Assembly (NCBI GenBank): GCA_041577295.1
Contig: JBFGJG010000001.1
Coordinates: 148,117 to 212,116, forward strand
DNA: 64,000 nt
Direction: 5' to 3'
Origin: Gemmatimonadales bacterium
Lineage (GTDB): Bacteria; Gemmatimonadota; Gemmatimonadetes; Gemmatimonadales; GWC2-71-9
In this document: positions 1,537-63,218 of the stretch, piece by piece
Layout of the letters: every line of letters starts with the position of its first letter
Numbering within the stretch: position 1 is the first letter of the stretch
Made by a program: the position numbers and the translations under genes
The notes under the pieces: model-generated
Database searches by the model: none
What the model was told of the DNA's origin: nothing
The model's input: the letters and a program-made list of their open reading frames with translations, nothing else

Positions 1537-1620
1537 GTCGGTCGGCGCGGAAGGAGCTGTCACCGACTCAGGAGCCTTGGGGATCGCGTGAACACCGTTC
1601 TTCGAACGGACGGAAAGACG

Positions 1621-1662
1621 GGGCCGGTCGGTTGTTTGCACGTTGAGCACACCGACCGGCCC
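1621..1662 (+). terminator. GC-rich stem-loop between the first two radical SAM genes (possible terminator or attenuator)
   Basis: Perfect 12-bp inverted repeat GGGCCGGTCGGT (1621-1632) / ACCGACCGGCCC (1651-1662) with an 18-nt loop, inside the 206-nt gap 1537-1742. No clear T-tract follows. Confidence 0.3.
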
Positions 1663-1742
1663 TCGCTGTTGATGGCAAAACGGCGCTGTGGTCGCCACGC
1701 TGAGCAGACCACCGCCGTCGCCTTCTCTCGCTCAGGCAGGGA

Positions 1743-3227
1743 GTGCCCGCCATGAAAATGCTACTGGTGCAGCCGCCGCAGGGAACCAGGTTCGGTCTCA
1801 CACGCATCCTGCGCGTCGAACCGCTGGGGTTGGAGTGCGTGGGTGCGGCTGTTCGCGAGCACGGCGTCGATGCCGAGCTCATCGACCTCCGTGTCGATAC
1901 GTGGGAAGGCCTCGACCGTGCACTCGACGACCGACCGGATGTGATTGGGGTGAGCTGCGCGTTCACGACCGATGTGTATCCAACGCTCGAGGTCACCCGC
2001 TTCATCAAAGAGCGCTACCCGGACCTCCCGCTGGTCGTGGGGGGCCACCATGCCTCGCTCGTGCCGGATGACTTCTTCCACACCGACTCCCATGTCGACG
2101 CTGTGGTTATTGGCGAGGGTGAGCAGCCGGCCATCAACATCGTGCAGGCCCTGAAGAACCGGCACCCGATCGATGCCGTCCCGGGGGTCATGACGTGGAA
2201 GAACCGCGAGAACGGCTTCAAGCATCAGCAACTGCGCGCCGGATTCGAGGTGATACCTCAGCCCGATCGATCACTCACGGCCAAGTATCGCGAATGGTAT
2301 CACCACGGCCAGGCAGTGCCGTCGGCCAGCGTCGAAACGTCACGCGGCTGCCCGTTCGACTGCAACTTCTGCAGCGTATGGGTGTTCTACCAGCGCCGTG
2401 CCCGCAGGCGCTCGCCAGAGACCATCGTACGGGAGCTCGAGAACGTCGACGAATACGAAGTCTTCTTCACGGACGACATCGCGTTTCTCCATTACGAGTC
2501 GTACAAGGAGATGGCGGAGCGCATCTTGGCGTCTGGCATGCAAAAGAAGTTCACGTGCGAAACGCGTTGCGACCTCGTCATCAAGTACCGCGACCTGTTC
2601 CCGTTGTGGAAGAAGGCAGGTCTCCACACGGTGTTTCTCGGGGTGGAGAAGATCGATGACGACGGGCTCAAGTCCGTGCGCAAGCGCACCAAAGGCGGGG
2701 CCGACTCCAACGTCGAGGCCATCCGGATCCTGAAGGATGCGGGCATCACGCCGCTGACATCGTTCATCACGGATCCGGCATGGCACGAAGAGGGGTTCGA
2801 TCGGCTGGAGGAATACATCCGGCGCCACGAGCTTCCCAATCCCGCGTTCACCGTGCTCACACCCTTGCCGGGAACGGAGCTGTACACCGAGCGCAAGCAC
2901 GAACTCACGACGCACGACTACGGCTACTATGATGTGATTCACGCCGTGCTGCCAACCACGCTCCCGTTAGAGCGGTTCTATGAACGCCTGGCGCAACTCT
3001 ACGATCTGACCGTCAAGACAACGCGGCTCACGATGCCAATGATGTTCAAGGCGGCGCGGATGGCAATGGATGGGAAGCTGTGGTGCATGCGTCGAGTGTA
3101 CAGTGCCGTGTCGGAAATGCGTCAGCCCAAGGCCTATCTCAAGCCCCCTGTGCGTGTTCTGGCGCCAAGTCGCAACGGCGACGCGGCGACAACCAACGGG
3201 CGCCGGCTCGCGTCACGCGTTGCCTGA
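1743..3227 (+). CDS. B12-binding domain radical SAM protein (class B radical SAM, methyltransferase-like)
   Basis: The N-terminal Rossmann-like B12-binding region is 'MLLVQPP...PDVIGVSCAF...PLVVGGHHAS'. The radical-SAM motif is 'SRGCPFDCNFCSV'. The start could instead be the ATG at 1752 or 1758. Confidence 0.85.
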   Translation: MPAMKMLLVQPPQGTRFGLTRILRVEPLGLECVGAAVREHGVDAELIDLRVDTWEGLDRALDDRPDVIGVSCAFTTDVYPTLEVTRFIKERYPDLPLVVGGHHASLVPDDFFHTDSHVDAVVIGEGEQPAINIVQALKNRHPIDAVPGVMTWKNRENGFKHQQLRAGFEVIPQPDRSLTAKYREWYHHGQAVPSASVETSRGCPFDCNFCSVWVFYQRRARRRSPETIVRELENVDEYEVFFTDDIAFLHYESYKEMAERILASGMQKKFTCETRCDLVIKYRDLFPLWKKAGLHTVFLGVEKIDDDGLKSVRKRTKGGADSNVEAIRILKDAGITPLTSFITDPAWHEEGFDRLEEYIRRHELPNPAFTVLTPLPGTELYTERKHELTTHDYGYYDVIHAVLPTTLPLERFYERLAQLYDLTVKTTRLTMPMMFKAARMAMDGKLWCMRRVYSAVSEMRQPKAYLKPPVRVLAPSRNGDAATTNGRRLASRVA

Positions 3228-26385: not shown

Positions 26386-28593
26386 TCACGCAGTGGACGC
26401 GCGCTGCCAATCTGACGAGATGCCACCGACGGAACTCGGGTACTCGATTCGATTGTGGTACACGCCCCCGAGCACGCGAGCGAACTCCTCCTTGATCCGG
26501 TTCAGCTGCGCCATCGTGACCGGCGCTTCGTCTAGCTGCTTCGCGGCGACCCGCTGAGCAACGATATGATCGATGGCGTCGCTCACCTTCTGCGGCGTCG
26601 GATCGTCGAGCACGCGCACGGCGGCCTCGACACCGTCCGCCAGCATCGTCACCGCGGTTTCGACTGATTGCGGCCGGGGACCCGGGTACCGATACTCCTC
26701 CGGGTTGACGTTTGGCCCCGAGGTGCGGGACCGGGCGCGGTCTAAGAAGTACGTGATCTCCATCGTACCGTGATGCTCGGGAATGAACGCCTTGATCGCA
26801 TCCGGCAGTTTGTGCTCATCGGCCAACGCCAAGCCCTCACGGACATGATTCCGAATGATGGCTGCCGAGACATCGGGTTTCAGTTTGTCGTGCGGATTGC
26901 TACCGGGTAGTTGATTCTCCACGAAGAACTGGGGCTTCTTCAGCTTCCCCACGTCATGGTAGTACGACCCGACACGCGCGAGCAGCCCGTCGGCACCGAT
27001 GGCGTTGCAGGCCGCCTCGCACAGATTGGCCATGGCGATACTGTGCGCGTAGGTGCCTGGGGTTTCCGTCGCAAGACGACGAAGCAGCGGCCGGCTCGGA
27101 TCCGAGAGTTCGAGCAGCGTGAGATCCGTAGTGACGCGGGCCATCGATTCGAAGATGGGAAGGGCGATCAGCACGAGGGCTGCCGAGACGAGCGCGTTCA
27201 GTCCACCGGCCAACCCGCCGAGACCCACCTCCTGCAGCGCGACGCCGCCGCGAAGACCCACCACGGAGCTGGCGAGCACGAACGCCCCCGTGACGATTGC
27301 CACTGAGCTGAGGAGCTGGGTTCGACGCCGGATGACCCGCACACTCAACGCGGCGGCGACACCGCCCACGACAGCCACGAACAGGGCGTCCGCGCCGCCG
27401 TAGGCCGCCTGGGTGCCGATCAAAATGGCCAAGACCAAGGCGGCCACGATTGCAACGCGACCGCTGAACAACACGGTGATCAGCATCGCGGCGAACGGGA
27501 TGGGAATCAACTCGGGCGCTTCGGAGAGCACTTGCCTGTTGAGCGCGGCACCCACGACGACCAACCCCACCAGGATGGCTAGCACCGCCATGTGACGGAA
27601 GTTCGCATAGGTGTACGACCGGTACAGCATCAGCAGGAGCCAGAACGCGGCGAGGATCAGCGCGTTACTGAGCATCTGCCCGGAGATCGTCGCGACGTTG
27701 CTCTTCTCACCACCGCCGCGGCGTAGCTGTTCCGCCCGCAGCGCCAAGAGCCGGTCCCGAACCTCCGGCGTCACGACTTCATTCGCATCGACGATTCGCT
27801 CGTTCGCGCGCACCCGATCCTTCACGGAGTCCACGCTCGCGCGGAGATCGCGCCGAAGCTCTTCCGTCTGCGCCCGATTGGGCAAGAGCGTCGGTTGGAA
27901 TAATCCGGCCAGGAACTTCACGAACACCGCGTTGCCGAGCGCAGAATTCGGATCTGGATGGCTCGCCGCGCGGCTATCGAGAAACCGCTGATAGGTGATC
28001 GCCGAGTCGCGCGGCACCACCCGCTCGCTGTCACCCCGTCGCAGAAGCAGGCTCACGTGCTGCTCAGTCTCGACCGTACCCGGTCCGGCCACGCCTCGAC
28101 CCAACTCCCTCCGCAGAACTGTTCGCACGGCGCTCCGGTAGCGCCCGAGACGCCCATTGCCAAGCAAGTATTGCCCCTCTTCGGGGTTGAGTCGTATGCC
28201 AAACCGCAACGCCGCAGCATTGAGGGTCTCGGACGTGCGGGCACTGTCCAATGTGGCAAAGAGTCGGTCTGTCCGAGCCAGCACCGAGTCGCGGACCTCT
28301 GGGCGGTACTCGTACACGGGGGGGACCGTCGTGGCCAGAGCGCTCGCCTCGCGCTCGATCTCCGAGGCGGTCTTCTGAACGGCAAACTCGAAGGGTGCGA
28401 GGATCTCGACGCGCGAGACCTCGCCCACCTCCGGAATCGCCACCTCGAACCCGCCGGCAACTGGGAACAGCAGATAGGTCAGCACCGCGAGCCCAAGGAG
28501 AAGACCCCAGCGCGCCGCGTGGAACCCGATGGCGCGGGGCAGCCGGCTGCGCGGCAATTCGAGGTAGAGGAGCGATCGCCGGTCGGGACTCAT
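26386..28593 (-). CDS. 7TM-receptor HD/HDIG phosphohydrolase (PgpH/YqfF-like)
   Basis: It has a large N-terminal extracytoplasmic region, a 7-TM block and a C-terminal HD domain ('HSIAMANL...YYHDVGK'). It sits between phoH and ybeY, as is typical. Confidence 0.85.
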   Translation of the reverse strand: MSPDRRSLLYLELPRSRLPRAIGFHAARWGLLLGLAVLTYLLFPVAGGFEVAIPEVGEVSRVEILAPFEFAVQKTASEIEREASALATTVPPVYEYRPEVRDSVLARTDRLFATLDSARTSETLNAAALRFGIRLNPEEGQYLLGNGRLGRYRSAVRTVLRRELGRGVAGPGTVETEQHVSLLLRRGDSERVVPRDSAITYQRFLDSRAASHPDPNSALGNAVFVKFLAGLFQPTLLPNRAQTEELRRDLRASVDSVKDRVRANERIVDANEVVTPEVRDRLLALRAEQLRRGGGEKSNVATISGQMLSNALILAAFWLLLMLYRSYTYANFRHMAVLAILVGLVVVGAALNRQVLSEAPELIPIPFAAMLITVLFSGRVAIVAALVLAILIGTQAAYGGADALFVAVVGGVAAALSVRVIRRRTQLLSSVAIVTGAFVLASSVVGLRGGVALQEVGLGGLAGGLNALVSAALVLIALPIFESMARVTTDLTLLELSDPSRPLLRRLATETPGTYAHSIAMANLCEAACNAIGADGLLARVGSYYHDVGKLKKPQFFVENQLPGSNPHDKLKPDVSAAIIRNHVREGLALADEHKLPDAIKAFIPEHHGTMEITYFLDRARSRTSGPNVNPEEYRYPGPRPQSVETAVTMLADGVEAAVRVLDDPTPQKVSDAIDHIVAQRVAAKQLDEAPVTMAQLNRIKEEFARVLGGVYHNRIEYPSSVGGISSDWQRASTA

Positions 28594-32520: not shown

Positions 32521-33617
32521 ATCTGCTCGACCTCGCTCCGTCGGACGCGGCAACGGCTCTCGCAGCATGGATGAGCGAGCAGGGCGAACCGCGCTACCGC
32601 ACGCCGCAGGCGCTCCGGCGGTTGTGGCGCCAGCCCGCGCGAGCGTGGCACGACGCTACGGAACTGCCGCTCGCACTACGCAACGCGCTCGAGCGGAAGT
32701 TTCCACTCCGGCGCCCACGGCTCGTCACCAGGCAGGTGTCGTCAGACGGCACCATCAAGTTCCTGTGGGGCTTTCCCGATGACGAAGCCGTCGAAGCAGT
32801 CCTGATCCCCGAAGGGCGGCGAAAAACGCTGTGCATCTCTTCACAGGTGGGGTGCGCGTACGGCTGCATCTTTTGTGCAACCGGCCGCATGGGCTTTGGG
32901 CGTCATTTGGAAGCGTGGGAGATCACCGCGCAGCTCCGCGAACTCCTGCTCGACGACACCTATGAGCGTCCGACCAACGTCGTCTTCATGGGCATGGGAG
33001 AGCCGCTGCACAACTGGGATAACGTCGACCGCGCGCTCACCATCCTCAACGATCCTCAGGGGTTGGGACTCGGTGCCCGCCACATCACGGTGAGCACGAT
33101 TGGCCTCGTCCCTGCCCTCGCCAAGCTGGCTGCCCGCCCAGAGCAGTTTCGTCTGGCGCTCTCGTTGCATGGGGCCGATTCGGATACCCGTCGGCGCCTG
33201 ATGCCTATTGAGAAGAAGTACCCGCTGGCGAGCGTCGTGAAGGCGCTGGGAAATTTCCGCCGCCGCATCACGCTCGAGTACGTGTTGATCGCCGACATCA
33301 ACGATCAGCCTGAGCACGCTGATCGATTAGCCAACCTCGCCCGCCCACTCAGAGCGCATGTGAATCTGTTGCCATTGCACCCAGGAGGTGCGCCCGATCT
33401 CCACCCCTCGTCCGAGGCGCGGATGCGGCGCTTTGCGGATCGACTGCTGGAGCTTGGCGTGCGCGCGACCCTGCGGCGGAGTCGCGGACTCGATATCAGC
33501 GCTGCGTGCGGCCAACTACGGCTCGAGACCGATCGTCACGGCATCCGCGCCCAAGATCACGGTCACGTCCAGCAACCGAGAGGGATTGGGATCAAGGGCA
33601 ACGACCCCATAGCCTAA
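32517..33617 (+). CDS. rlmN: 23S rRNA (adenine2503-C2)-methyltransferase RlmN
   Basis: It has the radical-SAM motif 'SSQVGCAYGCIFCATG', the 'GMGEPL' motif and the C-terminal catalytic Cys in 'SAACGQL'. The ATG at 32517 forms an ATGA overlap with the upstream stop. Confidence 0.9.
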   Translation: MNLLDLAPSDAATALAAWMSEQGEPRYRTPQALRRLWRQPARAWHDATELPLALRNALERKFPLRRPRLVTRQVSSDGTIKFLWGFPDDEAVEAVLIPEGRRKTLCISSQVGCAYGCIFCATGRMGFGRHLEAWEITAQLRELLLDDTYERPTNVVFMGMGEPLHNWDNVDRALTILNDPQGLGLGARHITVSTIGLVPALAKLAARPEQFRLALSLHGADSDTRRRLMPIEKKYPLASVVKALGNFRRRITLEYVLIADINDQPEHADRLANLARPLRAHVNLLPLHPGGAPDLHPSSEARMRRFADRLLELGVRATLRRSRGLDISAACGQLRLETDRHGIRAQDHGHVQQPRGIGIKGNDPIA

Positions 33618-33914
33618 CGCAGCGCGCACGCGCTTCGCGCCGGTCGAGTCACCTCGACGAACCAGGAGGAGCGTCGTATCCCGTCCGCGCGTCGACGCGT
33701 CCCCCCAAAAAACCACGTCAATCCCGGCGCGACGCAGCTCGCGCGTCGTCTCCCGGGCGAGCCCATCGGTGCCTGTTCCGTTCAAGACTTCGACGGTGAC
33801 GCGATCACCTTCGCCGGGAATGGGAAGCGTGTCCGTTCGACCGGCGCGGCTGAGCACGAGCGCGGTCGTCAAGATCAGGGCACCCGCGCCGGCGGCGAAA
33901 ATCAGTCGACGCAT
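33516..33914 (-). CDS. LytR C-terminal (LytR_C) domain-containing membrane-anchored protein
   Basis: It has an N-terminal TM anchor and 'VEVLNGTGTDGLARETTRELRRAGIDVV ... VTVILGAD'. Confidence 0.65.
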   Translation of the reverse strand: MRRLIFAAGAGALILTTALVLSRAGRTDTLPIPGEGDRVTVEVLNGTGTDGLARETTRELRRAGIDVVFWGDASTRGRDTTLLLVRRGDSTGAKRVRAALGYGVVALDPNPSRLLDVTVILGADAVTIGLEP

Positions 33915-34444
33915 CGGAGGGAGTTCCAGAAGTCGACTGTCTCGGGCAACAGTGATTGATCTCGTGCAATGATCATGGTGATGCGCGCCCGCGCGACATG
34001 ACGGAGCGCGCTATGCCGGTCGTCGAGCACGAGCGCGGTGAGCTGTTCGCGCTCGGCACGGTTCCCCCCGGTCCGTCCTGGTTCGAGGAAGTCTGCCAGA
34101 TAGAGCATGCGGCCCACGTCATCCCACCGCGCATACCCAACGGAGTGGAACGCCACGGCGTCGAGGACACCACGGTCGTCCTCGCCGTGTTGGGCCGCCA
34201 TCGCCGCCGCCGCCGGGCCGTGTAGCAGCGCTGGCCGATCCCAAGCTCGCGGCGCCAGCGCTCGCAGCGTCTCCACTGGCGCGTCTTTGAGCGCGTCATG
34301 GAGTGCCGCGGCCCTCAACCACCGTTCCCGTTCGGTCCGGTCCACGCTCAACGCGTCCGCCCAGGTCATCAACAGACGTCCCACGCGCTCGATGTGTTGA
34401 CGACGCGTCTCGCTCACCGCGGCCCACGACGGGATCGCTTTCAC
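33902..34444 (-). CDS. HD domain protein, YqeK-like (bis(5'-nucleosyl)-tetraphosphatase family)
   Basis: It has 'RRQHIERVGRLL...AAALHDALKD' and is about 180 aa. The start forms a GTGA overlap with the folK stop. Confidence 0.55.
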   Translation of the reverse strand: MKAIPSWAAVSETRRQHIERVGRLLMTWADALSVDRTERERWLRAAALHDALKDAPVETLRALAPRAWDRPALLHGPAAAAMAAQHGEDDRGVLDAVAFHSVGYARWDDVGRMLYLADFLEPGRTGGNRAEREQLTALVLDDRHSALRHVARARITMIIARDQSLLPETVDFWNSLRCVD

Positions 34445-34866
34445 GGCTGTGCATCCTCGAGCTCGGCGAGTTCCCGGAGCCAGAAGCTGCGATTGGGAAG
34501 TTCTGGGTGTGGCAGGATGAGATCGGCCTCGGCGATTGCCAGGTCCCCGTACCGCACAATGTCGATATCCAACGTCCGCGGCCCCCAGCGCCGCTCGCGC
34601 ACGCGTCCCGCCTCACGTTCGATCGCGTGACACGCGGCCAGGAGGGCCTGGGGCGTGAGGCCCGTGGTCACCAGCACCATCTGGTTCAGATATCGGGGCT
34701 GCGGTGGACCGAGGGGCTCGGTCTCGTCGATGCTGCTCGTTGCCAGCACCTCGGTGTGCGGTAGCGCGTGGAGTCGTTCGCGCGCCAAGGCCAGATAGCG
34801 AGCGCGGTCACCCTGATTGGACCCCAACGCGATGTAGACGTGCTCAGGTTTCCGCGCGACGCTCAC
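34441..34866 (-). CDS. folK: 2-amino-4-hydroxy-6-hydroxymethyldihydropteridine diphosphokinase
   Basis: It has 'VYIALGSNQGDR', 'ETEPLGPPQPRYLNQ' and 'WGPRTLDIDIV'. Confidence 0.9.
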   Translation of the reverse strand: MSVARKPEHVYIALGSNQGDRARYLALARERLHALPHTEVLATSSIDETEPLGPPQPRYLNQMVLVTTGLTPQALLAACHAIEREAGRVRERRWGPRTLDIDIVRYGDLAIAEADLILPHPELPNRSFWLRELAELEDAQP

Positions 34867-35221
34867 GTTCCAATACCACCTCGACGTAGTCCAGCAATCC
34901 GTGGATCGGTGCGTGGGGCTTACGCGCCGCCACGCGGACGCGCTCGACCCGATCCAGCGTCAGCGCGCCGGCGGCGATCTTCTCACACAGGGCTTCCAAC
35001 AGGCGGTGGTGACTGGTCCCGACCGTCTCTGCGACGAGGTTGTAAAGGTCACGGTAGTCGAGCAGACGCCGCGGCGAGTCGGTCTCGCCCACGTGTCGGA
35101 GGTCGAGCCACACGGTGAGATCCACGTCGAGCGGCTGCGGCACGGACTCCTCGTGTGGCAAGAGCCCTACGCACGTGTGAAACCGCATCCCGCGTAATGT
35201 GATCGAATCGCTAGTGCTCAC
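34844..35221 (-). CDS. folB: dihydroneopterin aldolase
   Basis: It has 'ITLRGMRFHTCVGLLPHEE' and 'LDYRDLY', and is about 125 aa. Confidence 0.85.
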   Translation of the reverse strand: MSTSDSITLRGMRFHTCVGLLPHEESVPQPLDVDLTVWLDLRHVGETDSPRRLLDYRDLYNLVAETVGTSHHRLLEALCEKIAAGALTLDRVERVRVAARKPHAPIHGLLDYVEVVLERERRAET

Positions 35222-35255: not shown

Positions 35256-37349
35256 TCAAAGGCCGGCGCCGTCTTCCGAGGTCACTTGGCTGGTAATCTC
35301 CGATAACATCTTTGCAATGGCGTTGAGCTCGTTGGTGGCCTGCCCCATTTCATCGACGCCGCTTGCGACGTCCTTGGCCCGTTGTAGCACGGTGTCGGCG
35401 TCTTTCCGATTGCGCGACGAGATCGTTGCCACGCCGGTGATCCGCTCGTCGAGCCGTGCGAAAACTTCGGTCTGCTGCCGCGTGGTCGCTGCGATACGTC
35501 GCACGTGGTCCGTCGCCTCCAGGGTGATACGGGTGATCGATTCCAAGGCCTGAAGCCCCTCGGTGCTCAGGTCTTCCACACCACCGACGGCGATCTCGCC
35601 GCCCCGCATGTGATCCACCACCTCCCCCAGCCGCCGTTGCATGTCCTCGACCAGTTCCGCCGCCTCGTCGGCGGTGCGCACTCCCTGCTCGGCCAGGCTG
35701 CGAACCTCGCGCGCGACCTCGGCAAACCCGCGACCATGCGCACCCGCCCTGGCGGCTTCGATCGCGGCATTCAGCGCCAGCAGGTGGGTCAGATCCGCCA
35801 ATTCGCGAATCGACGTTAGAAACTTCACGATCCGTCGGCTCGCGGTGCCAAGCTCACCAACCTTCTGGGAACTCTCCGCAACGAACGTCTTCAGCGTCAC
35901 GAGTCGCTCAATCGCGTCGCCGATCGTGCGGCGGTGCCGCTCGGCTAGATCGCTGGCTGTGGTGCTCGCCTTCGCCGCCTCGCTGCTGTCCTGATGCACT
36001 TGCTTGGTGGCAGCGCTCAACTCCTGCGTGGCATCCAACCCGCTAACCACCTCGGTGTCCTGTTGGGATAACCCACCGCCGATCGCCTCGGTGGCAGCCG
36101 TCATCGCGTCTGCCGCCGCGCGAAGCCCGTCCGCCAGGGAACCCAGCGCTTTCACTTGTTGATTGATCCGTGCGACCGTGTCGAGCAGCGGCTTGCGCAG
36201 GTCCGCAATGTGAACCGCGGTGGCAATGCGGCGTGCGCAGGTTTCGACCAACCCGAGCCGGCGGCGGCCATACTGGCGTCGCTTGTGGTGATCCAGCTCG
36301 AACGTCCCGATGAACTCCTCGCCGAAGACGAGGGGCACGATCACCAGACTGCGAACGTAGGTCGTGAGTCCGACCGTGCGTGCATCGCTCTCGGTATCCT
36401 GGATCGCGATCGTGCGGCGCGTCTCGAGCGCCTCCGTGCGCAACGTCTCAAACACAGGAGATATGTCGCCGGTTTCCGGTGTCCCGCTCGCTCCGCGATA
36501 GAGTGCCTCGAACGCGGTGCCGGTCCAGCGGTACACGCGATAGTCGCGCCAATCGAGAATCCGATGGGCCAGATCTTCGATGGTGGTGAGTGCCCGATCG
36601 AGCGTGACGTTGCTGGTGATCACGAGCTCCATTGCATGCAGCTTGTTCAGTTCCTCTGCTTGAATGGCCTCTTCCAGGATCCGCTTGATGATCGAGGCGA
36701 TGAAGACCACCAGGAAAGCGACGAACGGCCAGACGATCGCCGGCAGGAAAGCAACGGTCAGGATGACCACGCCGGCGCCGACCAGCGTGATCCCGTACGC
36801 CACGACCTCGTATCGCAGCACGAACAACCGCTCGTCGTGCGGAAGCTTGTCGCGAATGATGAGCGTGTAGTAGAACAGCGCGCGGGAAACGACGAAGTAG
36901 CTCAACCCGAACAGCGTGATTGCGAGAATCGCCTCATAGGATCTCGGCGTCGTGACACCGGAGAGGAGCAGCGCCCCTGCGTAAAACCCGTACGAGACAA
37001 CGAGCGCCGTCGCTTCGCGTGCCACGTTGACCAGTGCCGCTCGGGGATCTTTGCGAAACCAGATCCAATCCGTCGCGAACAGTCCGAGCGACACGCCGAG
37101 AACGGTCGTTGCCGGACCGAAGAGGAGCGCACCAGCGACCAGCGCAATTCCCGCCTGCGTCGCGTACGAGTATTTCCCGATCGCCAGGTAAAACGCACGC
37201 AGTGCAGCGGTGCCCAGCGCGAGCGCTAGGATGGCCGTCCACGATTCGAGCCACCGGGGGTCTCGCACAGGAACGGCAAGCAACAACAGACCGCCCGTTC
37301 CCGCGAGCGTCCGTGAGAACACGAAGCTCCATCGCCGAACGGCTCTCAC
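35256..37349 (-). CDS. methyl-accepting chemotaxis protein with polytopic N-terminal membrane domain and GAF domain
   Basis: It carries the highly conserved MCP signalling hairpin '[36 protein letters not shown]'. The GAF-like region is '...[24 protein letters not shown]'. There are about 6 predicted TM helices at the N-terminus. The GTG at 37349 forms a GTGA overlap with the trpA stop; the ORF-track start at 37670 lies inside trpA. Confidence 0.8.
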
Positions 37350-38152
37350 GCCACGCCCTCGCCGATGGGTGCCGCGTTGTCGAGGCTCATGCGAAGCCCA
37401 CTGAAAAATTCTCTGGCGTTGGCCAGCCCTTGCTCCAGCCGCTGTACCAGCGCACTCCCCACCACGACCCCGTCCGCGATCGCCGCGGCCGCCGCCAGTT
37501 GGCGACCCTCGGTGAGCCCAAAACCCACCACGATGGGCAAGCTGGTGCAGCGACGCACCCGTGCAACTGTCGCCTCGAGACCTCCCGTCACCTCCGTCCG
37601 CGCGCCGGTGACGCCTAGCCGCGCGATGACGTACACAAATCCCCGGGCGTTCCGCAGGATGGCACCGCATCGCGCATCGTTCGTGGTGGGTGCGATCAGC
37701 TGAATCTGTGTCAGCGGACTATCGGCGAGCGCACCTTCGACCGCGGCATCTTCACCGCCAGGCACGTCCGTGAGGAGGACACCCGCAACGCCTGCCTCGC
37801 TCGCGTCCGTCACGAAGCGCTCGAGACCGTACGCCAGAATGGGATTCACGTAGCCGAACAAGATGATCGGAATCTCGAGGTCCACCTCACGCACCATGGC
37901 GAGGACCTTCGCGAGGTTCATTCCCCCCTCGAGGGCGATCTGATTGGCGCGCTGGATCACGGGACCGTCGGCGACGGGGTCACTGAATGGCACGCCGACC
38001 TCGACGAAATCGGCGCCCGCGTCCACCACCATTTCGAGGGCGGCGCGTGACACCTCGGCCGTCGGGAAACCGGCGGTCAGGTAGGGAATGAGAGCGGTAC
38101 GGCGCTTGTGACGGAGGTGCGACCAGCGCGCCTCGATGCTGCTGTCAGACAA
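37346..38152 (-). CDS. trpA: tryptophan synthase alpha chain
   Basis: It has '[10 protein letters not shown]', '[20 protein letters not shown]' and 'GFGL'. Confidence 0.9.
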
Positions 38153-39632
38153 AGTAATCGCCGGGGTTGATTCCGTACTTCTCCGGATCCGTCACCTTGA
38201 TGATCGACCGCTTGAACGAGCCGTCCGGGGCCACGTCCGAGAGATTCACCAAGTGCCCCGGCTTGAGCATCGTTCCCTCGGGCGTGCTAATGATGCGCAC
38301 CATCGGACGGTGTAACTGGGTGAGGTCGGAGTTCGCGGCATGCACAATACCCAGCTCATATGAGTCGAGAATTACACATGTGCCTACCGGATAGACGCCG
38401 ATCAGATTGATGAGGGCCTTGACCAGCACCGGGTCGAACCCGCGACGTGGGTTCTCCCACATCTCACGCAGCACCTCGTCCGGCTGTAACGGGACCGTCT
38501 GATAGCTGCGTCGCGTGGTTGCCGCGTCAAACGCGTCCGCTACTGCCACGATCTTCGAGAATACCGACAAGCCACGAGGGCGGATCGACTTCGGGTAGCC
38601 GGTCAGGTCCACCTTCATGTGGTGCTCGTACGCGGCGATCATGGCCCGGTATGGTATCTCCCCGTAGCCACGCAGGCCGAACAGCACGAGCACCCCCAGC
38701 CACGGGTGGGCCTGCATGATTCGCCACTCCTCGTCGGTTAGGGCACCTTCTTTGGACAGAATCTCAATCGGGACGCGGCTCTTCCCCACGTCGTGGAACA
38801 GCGCCGCGAGACCCAGGTCGTATAGTTGGAGTTTGTTGAGCCCGATCCGTTTCCCGATCGACACGCTGAAGATGCACACGTTGACTGAATGCGTGAACGT
38901 ATACTCGTCGTAATCGCGGATGGTGGTGAGACCCACGAGCGACACTTCGTTCTTGAGTACCTGATCGACGATACCTTGCACGGCGCGCTTTACCTTCCTG
39001 ACGCTTGCCGTGCGGCCCATACGCACGCTGTTGATGACTTCCTTCGTTACCGCGACAGACCGTTCGTACGTGCGCTTGGCAACCTCTTTCGCCTTCTCCT
39101 CGTCCTGGAGATCCTCGTCGCTCTCGGCAGGGGGCTCCACCCCGACGTGGGTGACCCCGCCTTGCACGAGCTTCTGCTGAAGCTCGAACAGTTTGTTTGG
39201 ATCGGCCTCGCGCGCGGCGAACGACAGCAGCAACGAGATCAACACCTGCCATTCACGCCGCTCGACCTCCTCGCTGACCAAGAGCACGCCAATGTCACAC
39301 TGCCGTAGCGTCATGAGGACGTGGCTGAACGATGCGTAGTTGTCGAGGTCGAGTCGCAACCGGGTGGAGTTGACGAAAATGAACTCTCCAGAAATACGCA
39401 CTTCCAACTCGCTCTCGAGGTCGAGCAGCTTCCTCGCGGAGCCGTTCAGCTCGTCGAGCGCCCGCTGGACTTGGTCGTTTTCGACGGGGTAGAGCTTGAG
39501 GCTGCGAAGGGCAGCATAGAAGGACACGAGGAACGTACGACCGGTTTGCCGCAGGAGGCCTGCGGTCGTTCCCACCGCGTCGGTGAGCGTCGTGCGCGCT
39601 TCGCGCGTTTCCTGGTCCCCAATACTCGCCAT
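38145..39632 (-). CDS. HD-GYP domain-containing protein (putative c-di-GMP phosphodiesterase) with uncharacterised N-terminal domain
   Basis: The HD motif is 'LAALFHDVGK' and the GYP-type motif is 'YEHHMKVDLTGYPKS'. The N-terminal 140 aa or so resemble the N-terminus of the upstream HEAT protein. Confidence 0.85.
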   Translation of the reverse strand: MASIGDQETREARTTLTDAVGTTAGLLRQTGRTFLVSFYAALRSLKLYPVENDQVQRALDELNGSARKLLDLESELEVRISGEFIFVNSTRLRLDLDNYASFSHVLMTLRQCDIGVLLVSEEVERREWQVLISLLLSFAAREADPNKLFELQQKLVQGGVTHVGVEPPAESDEDLQDEEKAKEVAKRTYERSVAVTKEVINSVRMGRTASVRKVKRAVQGIVDQVLKNEVSLVGLTTIRDYDEYTFTHSVNVCIFSVSIGKRIGLNKLQLYDLGLAALFHDVGKSRVPIEILSKEGALTDEEWRIMQAHPWLGVLVLFGLRGYGEIPYRAMIAAYEHHMKVDLTGYPKSIRPRGLSVFSKIVAVADAFDAATTRRSYQTVPLQPDEVLREMWENPRRGFDPVLVKALINLIGVYPVGTCVILDSYELGIVHAANSDLTQLHRPMVRIISTPEGTMLKPGHLVNLSDVAPDGSFKRSIIKVTDPEKYGINPGDYFV

Positions 39633-39634
39633 CG

Positions 39635-41311
39635 TTACGACATCTCCCGTATGGCCCGGCCCACCGCGTTGCGCACCAACGGATCCTTATCCTGTGCAGC
39701 CGCGTTGAGAATGTCCTTCGCCTCGGGCGTGCCAATCTTGCCAAGCGCCATCGCGGCGCACGCCCGCGTCTCGGGGTCTTCTTTCCGCTTGATGAAACCC
39801 TTCGCTTTGAGCATCGACTGCAGCTTCTTGATCGCGGACGGACCCGCCAGGGTGCCGTAGGCTTCGAAGAACGCCGTCTTCTCAGTGAGGTCGGCCTGCC
39901 GTAGGCTGTTCCCGGTAATGATCGACTCAATCTTGCTGAAGCCACCGCGGTAGCCCCGGTTGGCGAACGCGCGAACCGCACCGACCCGCACATCCCGATC
40001 CTCATCCTCTACGGCGACCTCGAGTTCCTTGAGGGCTCCGGGGGAACCGATGGCAGCCAAGGCGGTGACGGCGGCGCGCCGAATCGCCGGAATTTCCCGC
40101 TTGAGCGCTCCTCCCAACGCCGGCACGACCGGCGGCAGCTTGACGTGTCCCACCACGCGGATCGCCTCGAGCACCACCGCTTCGTCGTTGGATGCGATCG
40201 CGCCCGCGAGGCGATCCGGATGCGCCGCAGCCAAACGCCTCGTGGAGTTCCCCAGGAGCTCCCGTACCCGTTGATTCGTGAGCCGAGGCAACCACGACAG
40301 AAGCGTCTCCAACGCCTCCGGCCGAAGTTCGCGAAAGAGCTCACCTAGCTCCTCTTCGGTGGGGTGGACGTGCGCTTCATCGAGTGACTGGAGCAGCTGT
40401 GCCAAGGTGTCCGACTGTGAGAGCTTGGCCGGCAGCTCTTCGAGCGTTTCCCGGTGCTCGTCCAACAACTCTCGAGCACGTTGACGCACCGCGCGAACCT
40501 CGCGCAGTACGTACGCAACCGACTGAAAGTCGCCAGCGGCGAGCAGGTACGGGATGAAATTCTCGACGATTGAGATCAGCTCGGCTCGTACTGTGGCGTA
40601 CGTCTGGAGCTCGAGCAAATCGAAGAGCATCGCGAGGACGTTGCCGCGCAGGTTCTGCGCGTACTCGCGATCGACCTCGCTCTTCAGATACTTGATCTCC
40701 TTAGGGTCGAGGAAGTAGAGCGTGGAGTCGAATTCCTCGATATCCACCAGCCCGGGCGGGCGTTGTGGCTCGGGTTGCTCCTCCACCTCACGCCGTATCT
40801 CCGCCACCGTCGCTGCTGGCGGCTCCTTGGTGGATGCCTCAATGGGATGGTGGTCGGCGCTGGTGAGGTCGACGTAGTCATACCGCACCGATTCCAGATT
40901 CGCTTCCCACAGCAGCGTCAGGAGATCGTCGTTCGACTCGGGTGGGAGGTGACGCGCCTTATTGACAACCTCGAGGAACCGGACGATCTCACCGTCCTCG
41001 ACCCCTGGCATGAGCGTGAGCGACCGGATTCCGTCTTTGTAGAGAACCCAGGCCAGGCTCTCGGACTTCGGCTGGGACAACACCGCGGCGCCATCCCACC
41101 GGAACTCCGTTTCCGCCACCTCCAGCTCCAGTTCGGCGCACTCGTCCCAAACCGGAGCGAACGCCGTAGTGACGTTGGCGAGGGCCCTCTGATAGACGGG
41201 GTTGTTCGGGAGATAGAGCTGAATCGCCCGCAAGCCCTTCGTAAACACCTGAAGGAGGTTCTCGACGGCCGCCGTTTCCTGTGGGGTGTTCGTCGTAGTC
41301 GATTCGGTCAC
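39635..41311 (-). CDS. HEAT-repeat protein with N-terminal domain paralogous to that of the adjacent HD-GYP protein
   Basis: The C-terminal HEAT-like repeats are '[14 protein letters not shown]', '[14 protein letters not shown]' and '[17 protein letters not shown]'. The GTG start forms a GTGA overlap with the trpB stop at 41308-41311. Confidence 0.7.
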
Positions 41312-42504
41312 TCAGCTTTCCCCGTGAGCGCCGCGATGTGGGCCACATCCTTGTCACCGCGGCCGCTCACGTTGACCACGATGACGTCACCTTCGAGCGA
41401 GCCGGATGGCTCGAGCAACCATGCCACCGCGTGTGCGCTCTCCAACGCGGGCAGGATGCCCTCCAGTCGCGCGAGCGTCGCGAAGGCTTCGAGCGCAGCG
41501 CTGTCCGAGACAGATTCGTACCGCACTCGACCCGTTTCGCGTAGATACGCATGTTCGGGACCGACCGCAGGGTAGTCAAGCCCCGCAGACACCGAATGCG
41601 CCGGTTCAACCTGCCCGTCAGCATCTTGGAGCAGGTAGGTGTAGCACCCGTGCAAGACGCCCGGCCGGCCCCGCGCCAATGAGGCGGCGTGGCGGCCCGG
41701 ACCGGGACCCTCACCTCCGGCCTCGACCCCAACCAGCGCCACCGAGGGGTCCTCGAGAAACGCGCGGAAGATCCCAATGGCGTTGGACCCGCCCCCGACG
41801 CAGGCAACCACCATGTCCGGGGCCCCACCGGTCCTCTCCGCCACCTGGGTCCGGGTCTCGCAGCCGATCACGCTCTGAAAATCCCCCACCATTCTAGGAA
41901 AAGGATCCGGACCGACTGCGGAACCGATCACATAATGTGTGGTCGGAACCGTCGTGACCCAGTCCCGGAGGGCCTCGTTGGTCGCATCCTTGAGGGTCCG
42001 GCGCCCGGCTGTGACCGGAACCACACGGGCACCTAACAGCTCCATGCGAAACACGTTGAGCCGTTGGCGCTCCATGTCGGCGGACCCCATATAGACAACA
42101 CACTCGAGCCCCAGGTGAGCGCACGCGGTGGCGGTCGCCACACCGTGCTGACCTGCCCCAGTTTCGGCAATGACGCGTCGCTTGCCGATCCGACGAGCCA
42201 GCAACGCCTGGCCAAGCGTGTTGTTGATCTTGTGGGCACCGGTGTGCGCCAGATCCTCTCGCTTGAGCAGGACCCGAGCGCCCAATCGTTCCGACAGCCG
42301 TGGGGCCTCCGAAAGCGGGGTCGGTCGCCCCGCGAACGTCCGGAGAAGCTCTCCCAGCTCGGCTCGAAAAGCGGGATCGTGTGCGGCCTCGTCGTACGCG
42401 TGAGCTAACTCATCCAGCGCCGGGATGAGGGTCTCGGGCACGTAACGACCGCCAAACGGCCCGAACCGGCCGCCTTTCACGGCGGGTGACGCAATGGCGG
42501 TCAC
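41308..42504 (-). CDS. trpB: tryptophan synthase beta chain
   Basis: It has '[15 protein letters not shown]', the PLP lysine region '[16 protein letters not shown]' and 'GGGSNAIG'. The GTG at 42504 forms a GTGA overlap with the trpC stop. Confidence 0.95.
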
Positions 42505-43310
42505 GCGCTGACGTTTCGCCGCGACCGGCCATGGCGCGGCACGCCCGACAGCAGGCGGACTGCCCGCTCGGGATGAGGCGCCCTGGACAGCACCGTGCCG
42601 ATCAGCACGGCATCCGCTCCCCACCCGGCCACGCGTTCGACGTCCGCTCGCCCGGCGAGTCCGCTTTCCGCCACGGCGACGATGTCCGCCGGCACTTGTG
42701 GAAGGAGTCGATGGTGGGTGACCGGGTGCACCACGAGGGACGCGAGATCGCGGCTGTTGATGCCAACGGTTTGGGGCTCGAGTGACAAGGCAATGCGAAG
42801 CTCTCGTTCGTCATGCACCTCAATGAGCTGCCCGAGGCCCAGCTCCCGGGCCACGCCTACCAACTCGCCGAGACGGGATTCCGTGAGCGCACGGACAATC
42901 AGCAGTATGGCGCTCGCGCCCACCGCGCGGGCCTCGACGATCTGGACTGGATCGAGAATGAAATCCTTTCGCAGGACCGGTAGCGATGCGCCTGCGCGCA
43001 CGGCGATGATGTCTTGGACGGAGCCGCCAAAGTGATGCCGTTCGGTGAGCACCGAGATCGCACGCGCTCCCCCAGCAGCATACGCCGTCGCCTGCTGGCG
43101 TGGGTCGAGCGTCTCGGCGATCACCCCCTGCGACGGCGAGCGTCGCTTGACCTCCGCTATCACTGCGACCTCTTCGCCCGCGAATGCGCTCAGCCACGGC
43201 ACGGGTGCCGGGGCCTCCCGGGCCGCCCGTTCCAGTATCGAGCGGCGGGTGCGCAGCTGCTCCACAACTTGACGCGTTTCCTCTAGAATCGCGCTCAACC
43301 CAGCCGTCAT
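42501..43310 (-). CDS. trpC: indole-3-glycerol phosphate synthase
   Basis: It has '[13 protein letters not shown]', 'ISVLTE..HFGG' and 'LRKDFI'. Confidence 0.9.
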
Positions 43311-43386
43311 TCCAGTCCCTTGCGCTTCGGTCTGTATTCGGGTATTTTCACTTCGGAGTTCTTTCGGTTTCCTCGGAGCGTGGCCA

Positions 43387-43995
43387 ATGCCGCTGACGCG
43401 CAGACAAAAACAGATTCTGGATTACCTGCAAAGCTACATTCAGGATCAGGGCTTCGCGCCGTCCTTCGAGGAGATCGCGGAGCATTTTTCCTTCGCCTCG
43501 CTCGCCACCGTGCATGAGCATCTCACCAATCTCCAGCGAAAAGGCTACATCCGGCGTGGCTACAACGAGAGCCGCTCCATAGAGCTCGTCCCACCCGCGG
43601 GCCAGTCCGGAGCCACGGAGCTTCCGTTGCTGGGAGAGGTGGCGGCCGGTGAACCGATCGAGGCGGTCACGTCACCAGAGACCATTGCGGTCCCGAACGA
43701 TCTGATCCCACGGCGCGGCAGCGCCTATGTGCTGCGCGTGCGGGGGAATTCAATGATCGACGAGCATATCCAAGACGGTGATTGTGTCGTGGTGCAGGGA
43801 CGCGATTCCGCCAACAACGGTGAGATGGTGATCGCTTTGGTCGATGGGACTTCGGCCACCGTCAAGCGCCTGTTTCGCGAAGCTGGCGGGTGGATCAGGC
43901 TACAGCCTGCGAACGATCAGATCGCACCCCTCCGCGTTCATGAGGACAACATCCTCATCCAGGGCGTGGTGGTTGGAGTGATTCGGAAGTACTGA
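43387..43995 (+). CDS. lexA: LexA repressor (S24 peptidase)
   Basis: It has the N-terminal wHTH 'LTRRQKQILDYLQSYIQDQGFAPSFEEIAEHF', the catalytic Ser in 'VRGNSMID' and Lys in 'ATVKRL'. Confidence 0.9.
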   Translation: MPLTRRQKQILDYLQSYIQDQGFAPSFEEIAEHFSFASLATVHEHLTNLQRKGYIRRGYNESRSIELVPPAGQSGATELPLLGEVAAGEPIEAVTSPETIAVPNDLIPRRGSAYVLRVRGNSMIDEHIQDGDCVVVQGRDSANNGEMVIALVDGTSATVKRLFREAGGWIRLQPANDQIAPLRVHEDNILIQGVVVGVIRKY

Positions 43996-45031
43996 GCGGC
44001 GTCTCGGCCCTCAGCCGCTCCAACGGACCCGCTCCCTCACCAGCCTCGAGAAGAGACACGGCGCGCGCCATCGCTTCATCCAGCGTAGCAGATACCCCTG
44101 CAACGTACAGCGCCGCTCCAGCATTCAAGCCGACGGCATTCCGCCCCGCCTGGTCGGCGCCGGCGTCGTGAAGCAGCCGCTCCACGCGGGACGCGTTCTC
44201 CTCCGGGGTGCCCCCTGCCAACGCCTCAATCGAGTCGCCGGCCAATCCGTAGGCTGATGGGTCGATGACCAGTGTTCGCACCCGGCCCTCGCGGATCTCC
44301 CATGCATCGGTCAGCCCAACGGGCGAGATCTCGTCCATTCCGACACGCGCGTGAACCACCAGTGCGTGCTGGCCGTCCAAGCGTGCGAGGACCCTGGCGA
44401 CCAGTGGAGCCCGCGACGCGTCCCACACGCCGATGACCTGCCGCTGCGTCCCGGCTGGGTTTGCCAGCGGGCCGATGAGGTTCATGATGGTCGGCACCGC
44501 GAGCTGGCGTCGGACAGGGGTGATCGGCGCCGTCGCGGGGTGAAATGCGGGCGCGAATAGGAACGCCATACCGACCGAGGACAGCAACTCCGCCGCGCGT
44601 GTGGGGTCGACGCTGATAGCCACCCCCAAGGCCTCGAGCAAGTCCGCCGAGCCGCACTTCGACGTGTACGAGCGATTGCCGTGTTTGGCCACCGCGGCCC
44701 CGCCGGCCACCGCGACGAAGGCCGCAGCGGTCGACACGTTGAACGTGGAGACGGTTCCACCACCCGTACCGCACGTGTCGATGGGGTGCATTCCCTCCGC
44801 GACCGGCACGCGCACCATGGCGCCGCGCAGCGCGCGAACGATCCCGACCACCTCGTCCTCCCGCTCCCCACGCGCCCGGAGGCCCATCAGCAATCCCGCA
44901 ATCTGGGCGGCACTCGCCTCGCCTCGCATGACCTCACTGAACGCATCGCTGGCCAACGTCTCACCGAGAGGGGTACCCTCGGCCAACGCCTGGAGTGCGC
45001 GCGCGACTGCGGTGCGAAGTGGCGTGGTCAT
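43955..45031 (-). CDS. trpD: anthranilate phosphoribosyltransferase
   Basis: It has 'DTCGTGGG' and 'KHGNRSYTSKCGSADLLEALG'. The ATG is at 45031; the ORF-track TTG at 45079 is less likely. The 3' end overlaps the convergent lexA by 41 nt. Confidence 0.9.
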   Translation of the reverse strand: MTTPLRTAVARALQALAEGTPLGETLASDAFSEVMRGEASAAQIAGLLMGLRARGEREDEVVGIVRALRGAMVRVPVAEGMHPIDTCGTGGGTVSTFNVSTAAAFVAVAGGAAVAKHGNRSYTSKCGSADLLEALGVAISVDPTRAAELLSSVGMAFLFAPAFHPATAPITPVRRQLAVPTIMNLIGPLANPAGTQRQVIGVWDASRAPLVARVLARLDGQHALVVHARVGMDEISPVGLTDAWEIREGRVRTLVIDPSAYGLAGDSIEALAGGTPEENASRVERLLHDAGADQAGRNAVGLNAGAALYVAGVSATLDEAMARAVSLLEAGEGAGPLERLRAETPLSTSESLQPPRPG

Positions 45032-45068
45032 AGAAAAACGTGGTGCGAGTGCGGTAGTGGAGCGTCCG

Positions 45069-45098
45069 AAAATGCCCAAGCACCCGGCTCATTGTCAA
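45069..45098 (-). promoter_or_regulatory. candidate sigma70-type promoter for trpD
   Basis: On the minus strand, TTGACA (45098-45093), an 18-nt spacer and CATTTT (45074-45069) lie about 40 nt upstream of the trpD ATG. The consensus for this lineage is unknown. Confidence 0.25.
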
Positions 45099-62850: not shown

Positions 62851-62863
62851 TCCGTGACTTTGA

Positions 62864-63218
62864 TGGAGGCGCGGGGAATCGAACCCCGGTCCGAACCTCG
62901 ATCCAATACCGCTTCTACGTGCGTAGACTACGCTCTTTGGTCTCCGCCGGGCGGCGCGCAGCCAGCCTCTCGACAGACGAGCTTCCAACATTCTCACACG
63001 TGGTGCGGAAGCGTCACCTCGTGCCAGCTCGATTCATCGATGCCCGTTACCCCGCCTCGAGCGGGCAGTGTAGCGGACAGGTGCGTCAGCTAGTGCTTAC
63101 GCAGCCAGAGCCAATTCAGTGTTGGCAATTGTGGTTTTTCCCAGTTGTTTCACCAGGGTACCGGGAACCTGGGCACGCTGCGATATCCTCACAAGACCCG
63201 TCGAAGCCAGTCGCCCCC
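62864..63218 (-). ncRNA. ssrA: transfer-messenger RNA (tmRNA, SsrA)
   Basis: On the minus strand, the 5' GGGGGCG pairs with the 3' CGCCUCC, including the G3:U alanine identity pair. A T-arm GGTTCGATTCC-type motif (GGGGTTCGATTCCCCG) is present. The tag reading frame GCC AAC ACT GAA TTG GCT CTG GCT GCG TAA encodes ANTELALAA* (63126-63097). The 3' CCA is not encoded; the discriminator A is followed by TCA. Confidence 0.9.

Follow-up and report, generated by a model that had tools for sequence, protein, structure and literature searches.

A HEAT-repeat/HD-GYP gene pair separates trpB from trpA across Gemmatimonadales and is probably an autonomous cassette within a housekeeping operon

The window analysed here is a stretch of 64,000 nucleotides (64 kb) from a Gemmatimonadales bacterium (GenBank assembly GCA_041577295.1, contig JBFGJG010000001.1, positions 148,117 to 212,116), and coordinates within it are counted from its first letter. 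Six genes on its minus strand form a string in which the two subunit genes of tryptophan synthase are parted by a gene for a HEAT-repeat protein and a gene for an HD-GYP protein. The string begins with trpC (42501-43310; indole-3-glycerol-phosphate synthase; PF00218/IGPS, E 6e-73; NF001377, 259.5 bits) and trpB (41308-42504; tryptophan synthase beta, TrpB1 type, with a GTG start; TIGR00263, 601 bits against a cutoff of 392). It continues with the gene for the HEAT-repeat protein (39635-41311; 558 aa; HEAT_2, E 1e-22, 80 bits), the gene for the HD-GYP phosphodiesterase-type protein (38145-39632; 495 aa; HD_5, E 4e-20, and also Pfam HD), trpA (37346-38152; tryptophan synthase alpha, with a TTG start; PF00290, E 4.5e-83; TIGR00262, 242 bits against a cutoff of 102), and the gene for a membrane-bound, GAF-containing methyl-accepting chemotaxis protein (MCP; 35256-37349; 697 aa; GAF and MCPsignal domains). 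Domain calls for the string were made with Pfam and NCBIfam, and they agree with the domains that a first-pass annotation of the bare sequence had assigned to these six minus-strand genes. Its placing of a GAF-containing MCP directly after trpA is likewise borne out, since the signalling domain PF00015 scores 98.9 bits against a cutoff of 34.6, with the GAF domain upstream of it, and a GTGA joins the two genes. trpA and trpB are normally neighbours (PMC6941341). The equivalog models TIGR00263 and TIGR00262 identify both as bona fide subunit genes in the window, yet here they are not adjacent, and the separation that the annotation had seen amounts to 3155 nt.

Direct reading of the sequence confirmed all five tight junctions described for the string. 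The GTG start of trpB overlaps the trpC stop in a GTGA (42501-42504), and the same motif joins trpB to the HEAT gene (41308-41311) and trpA to the MCP gene (37346-37349). The HEAT and HD-GYP genes are 2 nt apart (TAA-cg-ATG), while the HD-GYP gene overlaps trpA by 8 nt (TTGTCTGA), with the TTG start of trpA at 38152. The use of this tight coupling as evidence of a functional link did not hold up, because the packing is equally tight further downstream among unrelated genes. By their coordinates, a gap of 34 nt separates the MCP gene from folB (34844-35221), after which folB and folK (34441-34866) overlap by 23 nt, folK and a gene for an HD-domain protein (33902-34444) by 4 nt, and the latter and a LytR_C gene (33516-33914) by 13 nt, all four being minus-strand genes called with Pfam. 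Co-transcription of the HEAT/HD-GYP pair with the trp genes is plausible; it would yield co-expression, from which a shared function would not necessarily follow.

Gene order in relatives was surveyed by scanning with an alignment of the HD-GYP protein, with one genome taken per species and the window proteins mapped by tblastn. The survey yielded 80 loci, all from Gemmatimonadota, with HD-GYP identities of 59-88%. The source names attached to close homologues of the window proteins place it in the order Gemmatimonadales of that phylum. The dominant order is trpD, lexA (on the opposite strand), trpC, (trpF), trpB, HEAT, HD-GYP, trpA, MCP, (folB) and folK, where brackets mark genes that are not always present. 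trpB-HEAT-HD-GYP-trpA was found in 59 of the 67 loci readable on both sides, 54 of them with the MCP gene and 5 without it, and in a further 5 surveyed loci the sequence ends after trpA. Contiguous trpBA in close relatives would have spoken against the reading of the first-pass annotation, and none was seen: every locus with trpB and trpA around the HD-GYP gene holds the pair between them. Beyond the survey, a Gemmatimonadota lineage with 48% HD-GYP identity (L173) carries trpC-trpF-trpB-HEAT-HD-GYP-trpA without an MCP gene, and another with 51% identity (L171) carries HEAT-HD-GYP-trpA. The recurrence of one order across the order Gemmatimonadales and down to 48% HD-GYP identity indicates that the interruption is ancient and stable. 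trpB and trpA are a standard example of adjacent subunit genes, and the locus thus represents an order-wide exception, with a signalling insert of 3.2 kb and conserved overlapping junctions.

The junctions themselves recur in the related loci, with an overlap of 4 nt at trpB/HEAT (43 of 63), HEAT/HD-GYP (67 of 76) and trpA/MCP (43 of 52) and of 8 nt at HD-GYP/trpA (50 of 67). These counts come from a script that takes the start codon nearest the upstream stop, within 75 nt of the projected start, and is therefore biased toward tight junctions; such a bias could not produce the identical exact overlap in most loci. Together, the recurring gene order and overlap types place the arrangement far beyond chance. 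Misassembly or over-read open reading frames could in principle have created a split that does not exist, and GC-rich DNA does yield many spurious long frames. Both inserted proteins, however, have thousands of homologues at E <= 0.001 and confident AlphaFold2 models, and more than 60 independently assembled genomes, including the complete chromosomes CP070792.1 and OY969695.1, show the same order, so that an artefact can be considered refuted for practical purposes. GC content is 0.60 in the HD-GYP gene region (38000-39500) compared with 0.65-0.67 in the flanks. Third-position GC of the HEAT and HD-GYP genes is 0.79, like that of the neighbouring genes, so the insertion is not recent and gives no sign of recent transfer.

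Other genes of the locus are conserved to differing degrees. The position of lexA is identical in 63 related loci, and that of trpD is also conserved. In 28 more distant loci (within L043-L086) and in L173, trpC and trpB have trpF between them; the gene is missing from this position in the clade of the window, where trpC and trpB overlap directly. panB-panC lies downstream of folK in some relatives (L001, L003), and neither trpF nor panB or panC was found anywhere in the 64 kb window. Over 52 loci, median identity to the window proteins is 72% for TrpB and 70% for both the HD-GYP protein and LexA, followed by TrpD (56%), HEAT (55%), TrpA (54%), TrpC (53%) and MCP (44%). Judged by these identities, the HD-GYP protein is held at a housekeeping level of constraint, which is unusually strong for a signalling phosphodiesterase.

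The strongest evidence on the role of the pair comes from genomes in which it has outlasted its neighbours. In about 10 Gemmatimonadales species (L010, L028, L038, L042, L044, L058, L065, L067 and L079, and also L055 and L056), trpD, trpC, trpB and trpA are all gone from the locus, while htrA-(tal)-truA-lexA and HEAT-HD-GYP-(MCP)-(folB)-folK are kept. The lost genes sit at three separate positions in other genomes. A neighbour-joining tree built from the HD-GYP protein spreads the loci without trp genes over at least four clades nested among trp-containing ones, which indicates that the trp genes were lost repeatedly and that the pair was retained each time. The function of the pair is therefore probably independent of tryptophan synthase. 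These losses around the insert amount to a natural experiment, in which gene order and tight coupling alone can mislead the inference of function. The repeated loss also suggests loss of tryptophan biosynthesis in these species, with possible auxotrophy.

The pair also occurs far from any tryptophan gene in other phyla. An HD-GYP family with the same full-length architecture comprises 2550 representatives with E <= 1e-30 and identities as low as 29%, and in its distant members a full-length HEAT homologue stands immediately upstream while trp genes are absent nearby; HEAT orthologues thus precede the HD-GYP gene outside Gemmatimonadota as well. Among 80 metagenome loci, about 10 held full-length family members, the others being generic HD-GYP proteins. 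On unassigned metagenome contigs the pair is accompanied by a murQ-like SIS gene and DUF2007 upstream and DUF5683 downstream on the other strand (L088, L090), by a PduO-type adenosyltransferase upstream (L096), or by GDSL lipase, G6PD, Skp and nth (L087, L089), and L093 likewise has HEAT-HD-GYP without trp neighbours. In a Nitrospiria locus (L167), pabB/pabC-like genes (1622-3082 and 752-1615) diverge from the pair, with rrf2-isc downstream. In a Nitrospirae locus (L172), genes for chorismate pyruvate-lyase, ubiA and ubiD (752-3151) diverge from it, and recJ-relA lies downstream on the same strand as the pair. DUF5683 also lies downstream on the opposite strand in a Zixibacteria locus (L169), and in a deep Gemmatimonadota lineage (L170) the pair has a divergent fabH on one side and DUF4136 downstream. 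On a Methylomirabilis-like contig (L168), a PilZ-domain gene (2262-3005) diverges from the pair, a weak hint of a cyclic di-GMP (c-di-GMP) context. In L167, L168 and L170, the HEAT and HD-GYP genes are called with an overlap of 4-11 nt. The pair thus defines an uncharacterised, multi-phylum HD-GYP family under housekeeping-level constraint.

These contexts bear directly on the proposal of the first-pass annotation that the arrangement links tryptophan or indole status to second-messenger and taxis signalling. That proposal is poorly supported in view of the autonomy of the pair in other phyla with unrelated neighbours, its retention in at least four trp-less clades, and an MCP gene that comes and goes. 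Under such functional coupling the pair, perhaps with the MCP, would sense or respond to tryptophan, indole or another chorismate-derived metabolite, and selection would have favoured its place in the trp operon for keeping second-messenger turnover and taxis in step with aromatic amino acid biosynthesis. Conservation of the trpB/trpA position throughout the order and to 48-51% HD-GYP identity fits such coupling, as do junctions that look like translational coupling, the folB and folK genes that follow in the same Gemmatimonadales string, and the Nitrospirota neighbours, either pabB/pabC-like genes or chorismate pyruvate-lyase with ubiA and ubiD. Against this stand the clades that kept the pair after losing every trp gene from the locus, the contexts free of aromatic-pathway genes (murQ/DUF2007, PduO, FabH, GDSL lipase, G6PD, Skp and nth), the lineage-variable MCP, and the N-terminal domain shared by the two proteins of the pair (see below), a would-be ligand sensor that matches no known domain. 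We regard functional coupling as quite unlikely, and it keeps some weight on account of the long-lasting arrangement and the chorismate-pathway neighbours in two Nitrospirota lineages.

The HD-GYP protein consists of three parts, all encoded on the minus strand. An N-terminal domain (residues 30-164; 39141-39545), paralogous to the N-terminus of the HEAT protein, precedes the catalytic domain (residues ~235-414; 38391-38930), which carries the metal ligands and the GYP motif and aligns to PmGH and V-cGAP3. A C-terminal beta-rich domain follows (residues 415-494; 38151-38390); it has five strands in the AlphaFold2 model and is conserved through the family, and these ~80 residues have no Pfam match. 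By sequence, the best Protein Data Bank (PDB) match of the protein is V-cGAP3 (5z7c, E 4e-25), and PmGH (4mcw) matches with E 1e-21. The catalytic alignment to both covers ~170 residues and includes all His/Asp metal ligands and the GYP motif. The model has a pLDDT of 83, and its top Foldseek matches are PmGH (first), DvhD, Bd1817 and PA4781, with a probability of 1.00 to 4mcw, 9rbz, 3tm8 and 4r8z and a target-normalised TM-score of at most 0.73 (isolated domains). These matches assign the protein to the HD-GYP fold. In family alignments the metal ligands H248, H280-D281, H309, H337-H338 and D369 are invariant or nearly so, as are G345-Y346-P347 and the lysine of HDxGK. The extended GYP motif (HHExxDGxGYP) reads EHHMKVDLTGYP and departs from the consensus at the E following HH and at the G following D.

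A catalytically dead HD-GYP domain would have undermined the signalling part of the first-pass annotation, and every metal ligand and the GYP motif are intact by sequence. From these ligands, the protein is probably an active enzyme. Known HD-GYP enzymes hydrolyse only c-di-GMP or cGAMP (bioRxiv 10.1101/2021.11.05.467447), and the most likely substrate here would be c-di-GMP, cut to pGpG. The position of the third-metal ligand Glu185 of PmGH is taken by Tyr244, which under the published classification predicts a binuclear centre. The catalytic domain is like those of PmGH (4MCW) and V-cGAP3 (5Z7C) in its metal ligands and GYP motif, whereas the sensor domain differs; in addition, Tyr244 stands in place of PmGH Glu185, KPG reads KEG, and RxYK reads RSYQ. 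P0244, a family member at 50% identity on a 1.8 kb contig too short to show neighbouring genes, has GFP in the GYP position and no RxY motif, and could be a degenerate variant without catalytic activity.

The same autonomous unit might nevertheless do something other than degrade c-di-GMP. It could act on 3'3'-cGAMP, pGpG or another signal, or serve mainly as a nucleotide receptor, with the HEAT protein as an effector scaffold in a housekeeping process. In favour of this, the HD-GYP protein is conserved to the level of TrpB and LexA (median identity 70%), which is unusual for a signalling phosphodiesterase; its best sequence match in the PDB is the cGAMP-specific V-cGAP3; and some HD-GYP domains are of the receptor type, DvhD (9rbz) among the top fold matches being an example. 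Moreover, RxY[K/R] ends in glutamine instead of lysine or arginine in Gemmatimonadales, and this last position is variable within the family. The invariance of the metal ligands, the GYP tyrosine and the HDxGK lysine argues instead for catalysis, the activities reported for HD-GYP enzymes restrict the substrate to the two cyclic dinucleotides named above, and the PilZ gene beside the pair in L168 hints weakly at c-di-GMP. We consider this alternative unlikely. A role in anti-phage defence was rejected, as PADLOC models gave only a generic HEAT-ARM repeat match (29 bits) and a marginal Cas3 HD match (E 0.009).

The partner protein is modelled with a pLDDT of 81 as an N-terminal alpha/beta domain, a low-confidence linker (~150-200) and an alpha-solenoid (~203-556). 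Its PDB fold matches are solenoids only, and by sequence it matches AlphaRep proteins. The N-terminal domain (residues 15-143; 40883-41269, minus strand) is homologous to that of the HD-GYP protein. Comparison of a Gemmatimonadota HEAT alignment with a mixed-phylum HD-GYP alignment in hhalign gave a probability of 92.9% (E 3.8e-7), which rose to 97.1% (E 5.9e-11 over 128 columns) with more diverse alignments. The joint alignment is nearly free of gaps, and the order of secondary-structure elements is common to both. The two proteins therefore share a homologous N-terminal domain of ~130 residues, a new domain that is duplicated on the partner. No counterpart was found in Pfam, NCBIfam or PDB sequences, and Foldseek searches with the whole-protein models matched only the HD-GYP and solenoid parts. 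A match to a cytochrome c555 trimer (E 1.6e-7) was discarded as spurious, since it arose from three copies of a 40-residue stretch and the single-copy cytochrome gave E 0.32. Assignment to DUF3391 (PF11871) was also rejected (E 0.013, 16.4 bits against a cutoff of 27.8); the match is confined to profile positions 90-135, which correspond to the linker helix (residues 168-213), and the isolated N-terminus gave none.

The shared domain suggests that the HEAT and HD-GYP proteins associate, or are controlled together, through it. More speculatively, it could be a sensor or heterodimerisation module for a metabolite derived from chorismate (for example tryptophan, indole, anthranilate or PABA), with the pair tuning cyclic-dinucleotide levels to the status of the aromatic pathway and, through the adjacent MCP, also taxis in Gemmatimonadales. 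Such a module would account both for the pair having become fixed within the trp operon and for the chorismate-pathway genes beside it in Nitrospirota; we regard it as a long shot.

The nearest described architecture is the DUF3391-HD-GYP family of Bd1817, PA4108 and VC2497, of which PA4108 and VC2497 hydrolyse c-di-GMP (bioRxiv 10.1101/2021.11.05.467447). Like the window protein, these are cytoplasmic HD-GYP proteins in which a long helix joins the catalytic domain to an N-terminal domain that is neither REC nor GAF, and Bd1817 is among the top fold matches. However, the window N-terminal domain has two long helices and then strands, whereas DUF3391 has four strands and then two helices, and the window protein further differs in its extra C-terminal beta domain and its obligate HEAT-repeat neighbour with the same N-terminal domain. 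A review of HD-GYP architectures recognises as a gap that many N-terminal domains are still undefined, and it does not mention a HEAT partner (bioRxiv 10.1101/2021.11.05.467447). Our literature searches found no description of the HEAT/HD-GYP pair.

With a probability of roughly 0.6, we read the placement as a frozen insertion, in which an autonomous HEAT/HD-GYP cassette became trapped in a housekeeping operon. The locus would be a long, tightly packed housekeeping string of the order trpC-trpB-[HEAT-HD-GYP]-trpA-[MCP]-folB-folK-HD-LytR_C, presumably transcribed from the lexA-trpC spacer, a promoter region shared with the divergent lexA. The pair itself would be an old, self-contained unit, consisting of a probably active, binuclear-type cyclic-dinucleotide phosphodiesterase and its HEAT partner. 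It would have entered the trpB-trpA junction early in the evolution of Gemmatimonadota and been fixed there by overlapping stop and start codons. With such overlaps at either end, the pair would hardly be excised cleanly unless its neighbours decayed, as in the trp-less lineages. The pair would probably be co-transcribed with the trp genes, its co-expression following from its position and its function not depending on them.

Several observations weigh against the frozen-insertion reading or parts of it. Selection for co-expression could explain why the pair has stayed for so long exactly between the genes for two subunits of one enzyme, and the two Nitrospirota lineages place the pair beside chorismate-using genes of different pathways (L167, L172). 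The absence of trp genes in the trp-less species is established for this locus only, and both co-transcription and the absence of internal promoters are assumptions. In the catalytic domain, the KPG motif (K294-E-G296) keeps its lysine and glycine with the proline replaced, and the guanine-contact motif RxY[K/R] (R375-S-Y377-Q378) keeps its arginine and tyrosine with the final lysine or arginine replaced.

Conserved super-operons of unrelated housekeeping genes offer a comparison. In gene order, the window string resembles them as a long, co-directional and overlapping series that mixes tryptophan, folate and envelope genes, with pantothenate genes (panB-panC) in relatives, and that is conserved as a whole while single genes drop in and out. 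Parallels also exist among trp operons: Burkholderia, some Flavobacterium and a Sargasso Sea contig have genes of unknown function at the trpB-trpA junction (PMC2395257), and an interrupted trpBA pair therefore has precedent. The likeness is one of position, in that a foreign gene stands exactly between trpB and trpA, lineage-wide and stably. The window insert differs in comprising two genes and 3.2 kb with recognisable signalling domains, and in being traceable in other phyla as an autonomous unit that outlives the trp genes. Our literature searches turned up no two-gene signalling insert conserved throughout an order. The trpB-HEAT-HD-GYP-trpA order is real, ancient and apparently undescribed. 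In split trp operons, accD-folC and truA flank trpFBA (PMC2395257), and truA and folate genes are neighbours in the window locus too.

The string is bounded by a 76-nt spacer (43311-43386), beyond which lies lexA (43387-43995, plus strand; Pfam LexA_DNA_bind and Peptidase_S24), divergent from trpC, and on its far side trpD (43955-45079, minus strand; anthranilate phosphoribosyltransferase; Glycos_transf_3 and Glycos_trans_3N). The spacer holds two TTCGG-N6-TTCGG direct-repeat pairs, four repeats in all (43326-43367, with no strand assigned; CCGAA in the direction of trpC), which form a candidate operator or shared promoter element. These are the only two matches to the pattern in the window, compared with 0.28 expected. 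Related loci totalling 1.07 Mb contain 130 matches, of which 121, distributed over 62 of 63 loci, are found in the 150 nt upstream of lexA. Since the repeats are also present in the trp-less loci, they go with lexA and not with the trp genes. The CCGAA repeats may represent a LexA operator of Gemmatimonadota, in which case the string may be under SOS influence. Their spacing recalls the alphaproteobacterial GTTC-N7-GTTC box. We found no description of a Gemmatimonadota LexA motif in the literature. The repeats may provide a first candidate operator for this phylum. In one relative (L085) the lexA match falls into two pieces (1973-2281 and 2271-2579), which may reflect a frameshift, a pseudogene or a sequencing error. 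Rfam gave no leader (T-box, trp leader or riboswitch) near the operon, its sole match in the window being a tmRNA, and sites resembling terminators and promoters showed no excess over shuffled sequence.

The MCP gene is a later, lineage-variable addition to the string. In 54 loci it follows trpA, whereas L001, L003, L009, L027, L036 and L173 lack it. The idea that it is specific to close relatives of the window was rejected, because the survey of 80 loci shows it to be widespread and secondarily lost in some clades. The N-terminal ~225 residues, read by eye from the translation, form a polytopic membrane region with ~6-7 hydrophobic segments. Its frame stays open upstream to 37670; in relatives the gene is called from the GTGA start and encodes 697-698 aa. 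No CheA or CheW was found among the window genes scanned with Pfam, a scan that covered only part of the open reading frames.

Around the locus, the window consists of core housekeeping DNA. Upstream of the string, beyond lexA and together with trpD, lie truA, htrA and a gene for transaldolase, and aspS, phoH, corC, mgtE, purB, purC, purL and ppdK are found elsewhere in the window. Beside phoH stands a gene for a 7TM receptor with an intracellular HD hydrolase domain (26386-28593; 7TMR-HDED, 7TM-7TMR_HD and HD), a second HD-type signalling hydrolase in the window. The tmRNA gene lies on the minus strand at 62861-63218 (RF00023, 171 bits), and ARAGORN reads its tag peptide as ANTELALAA.

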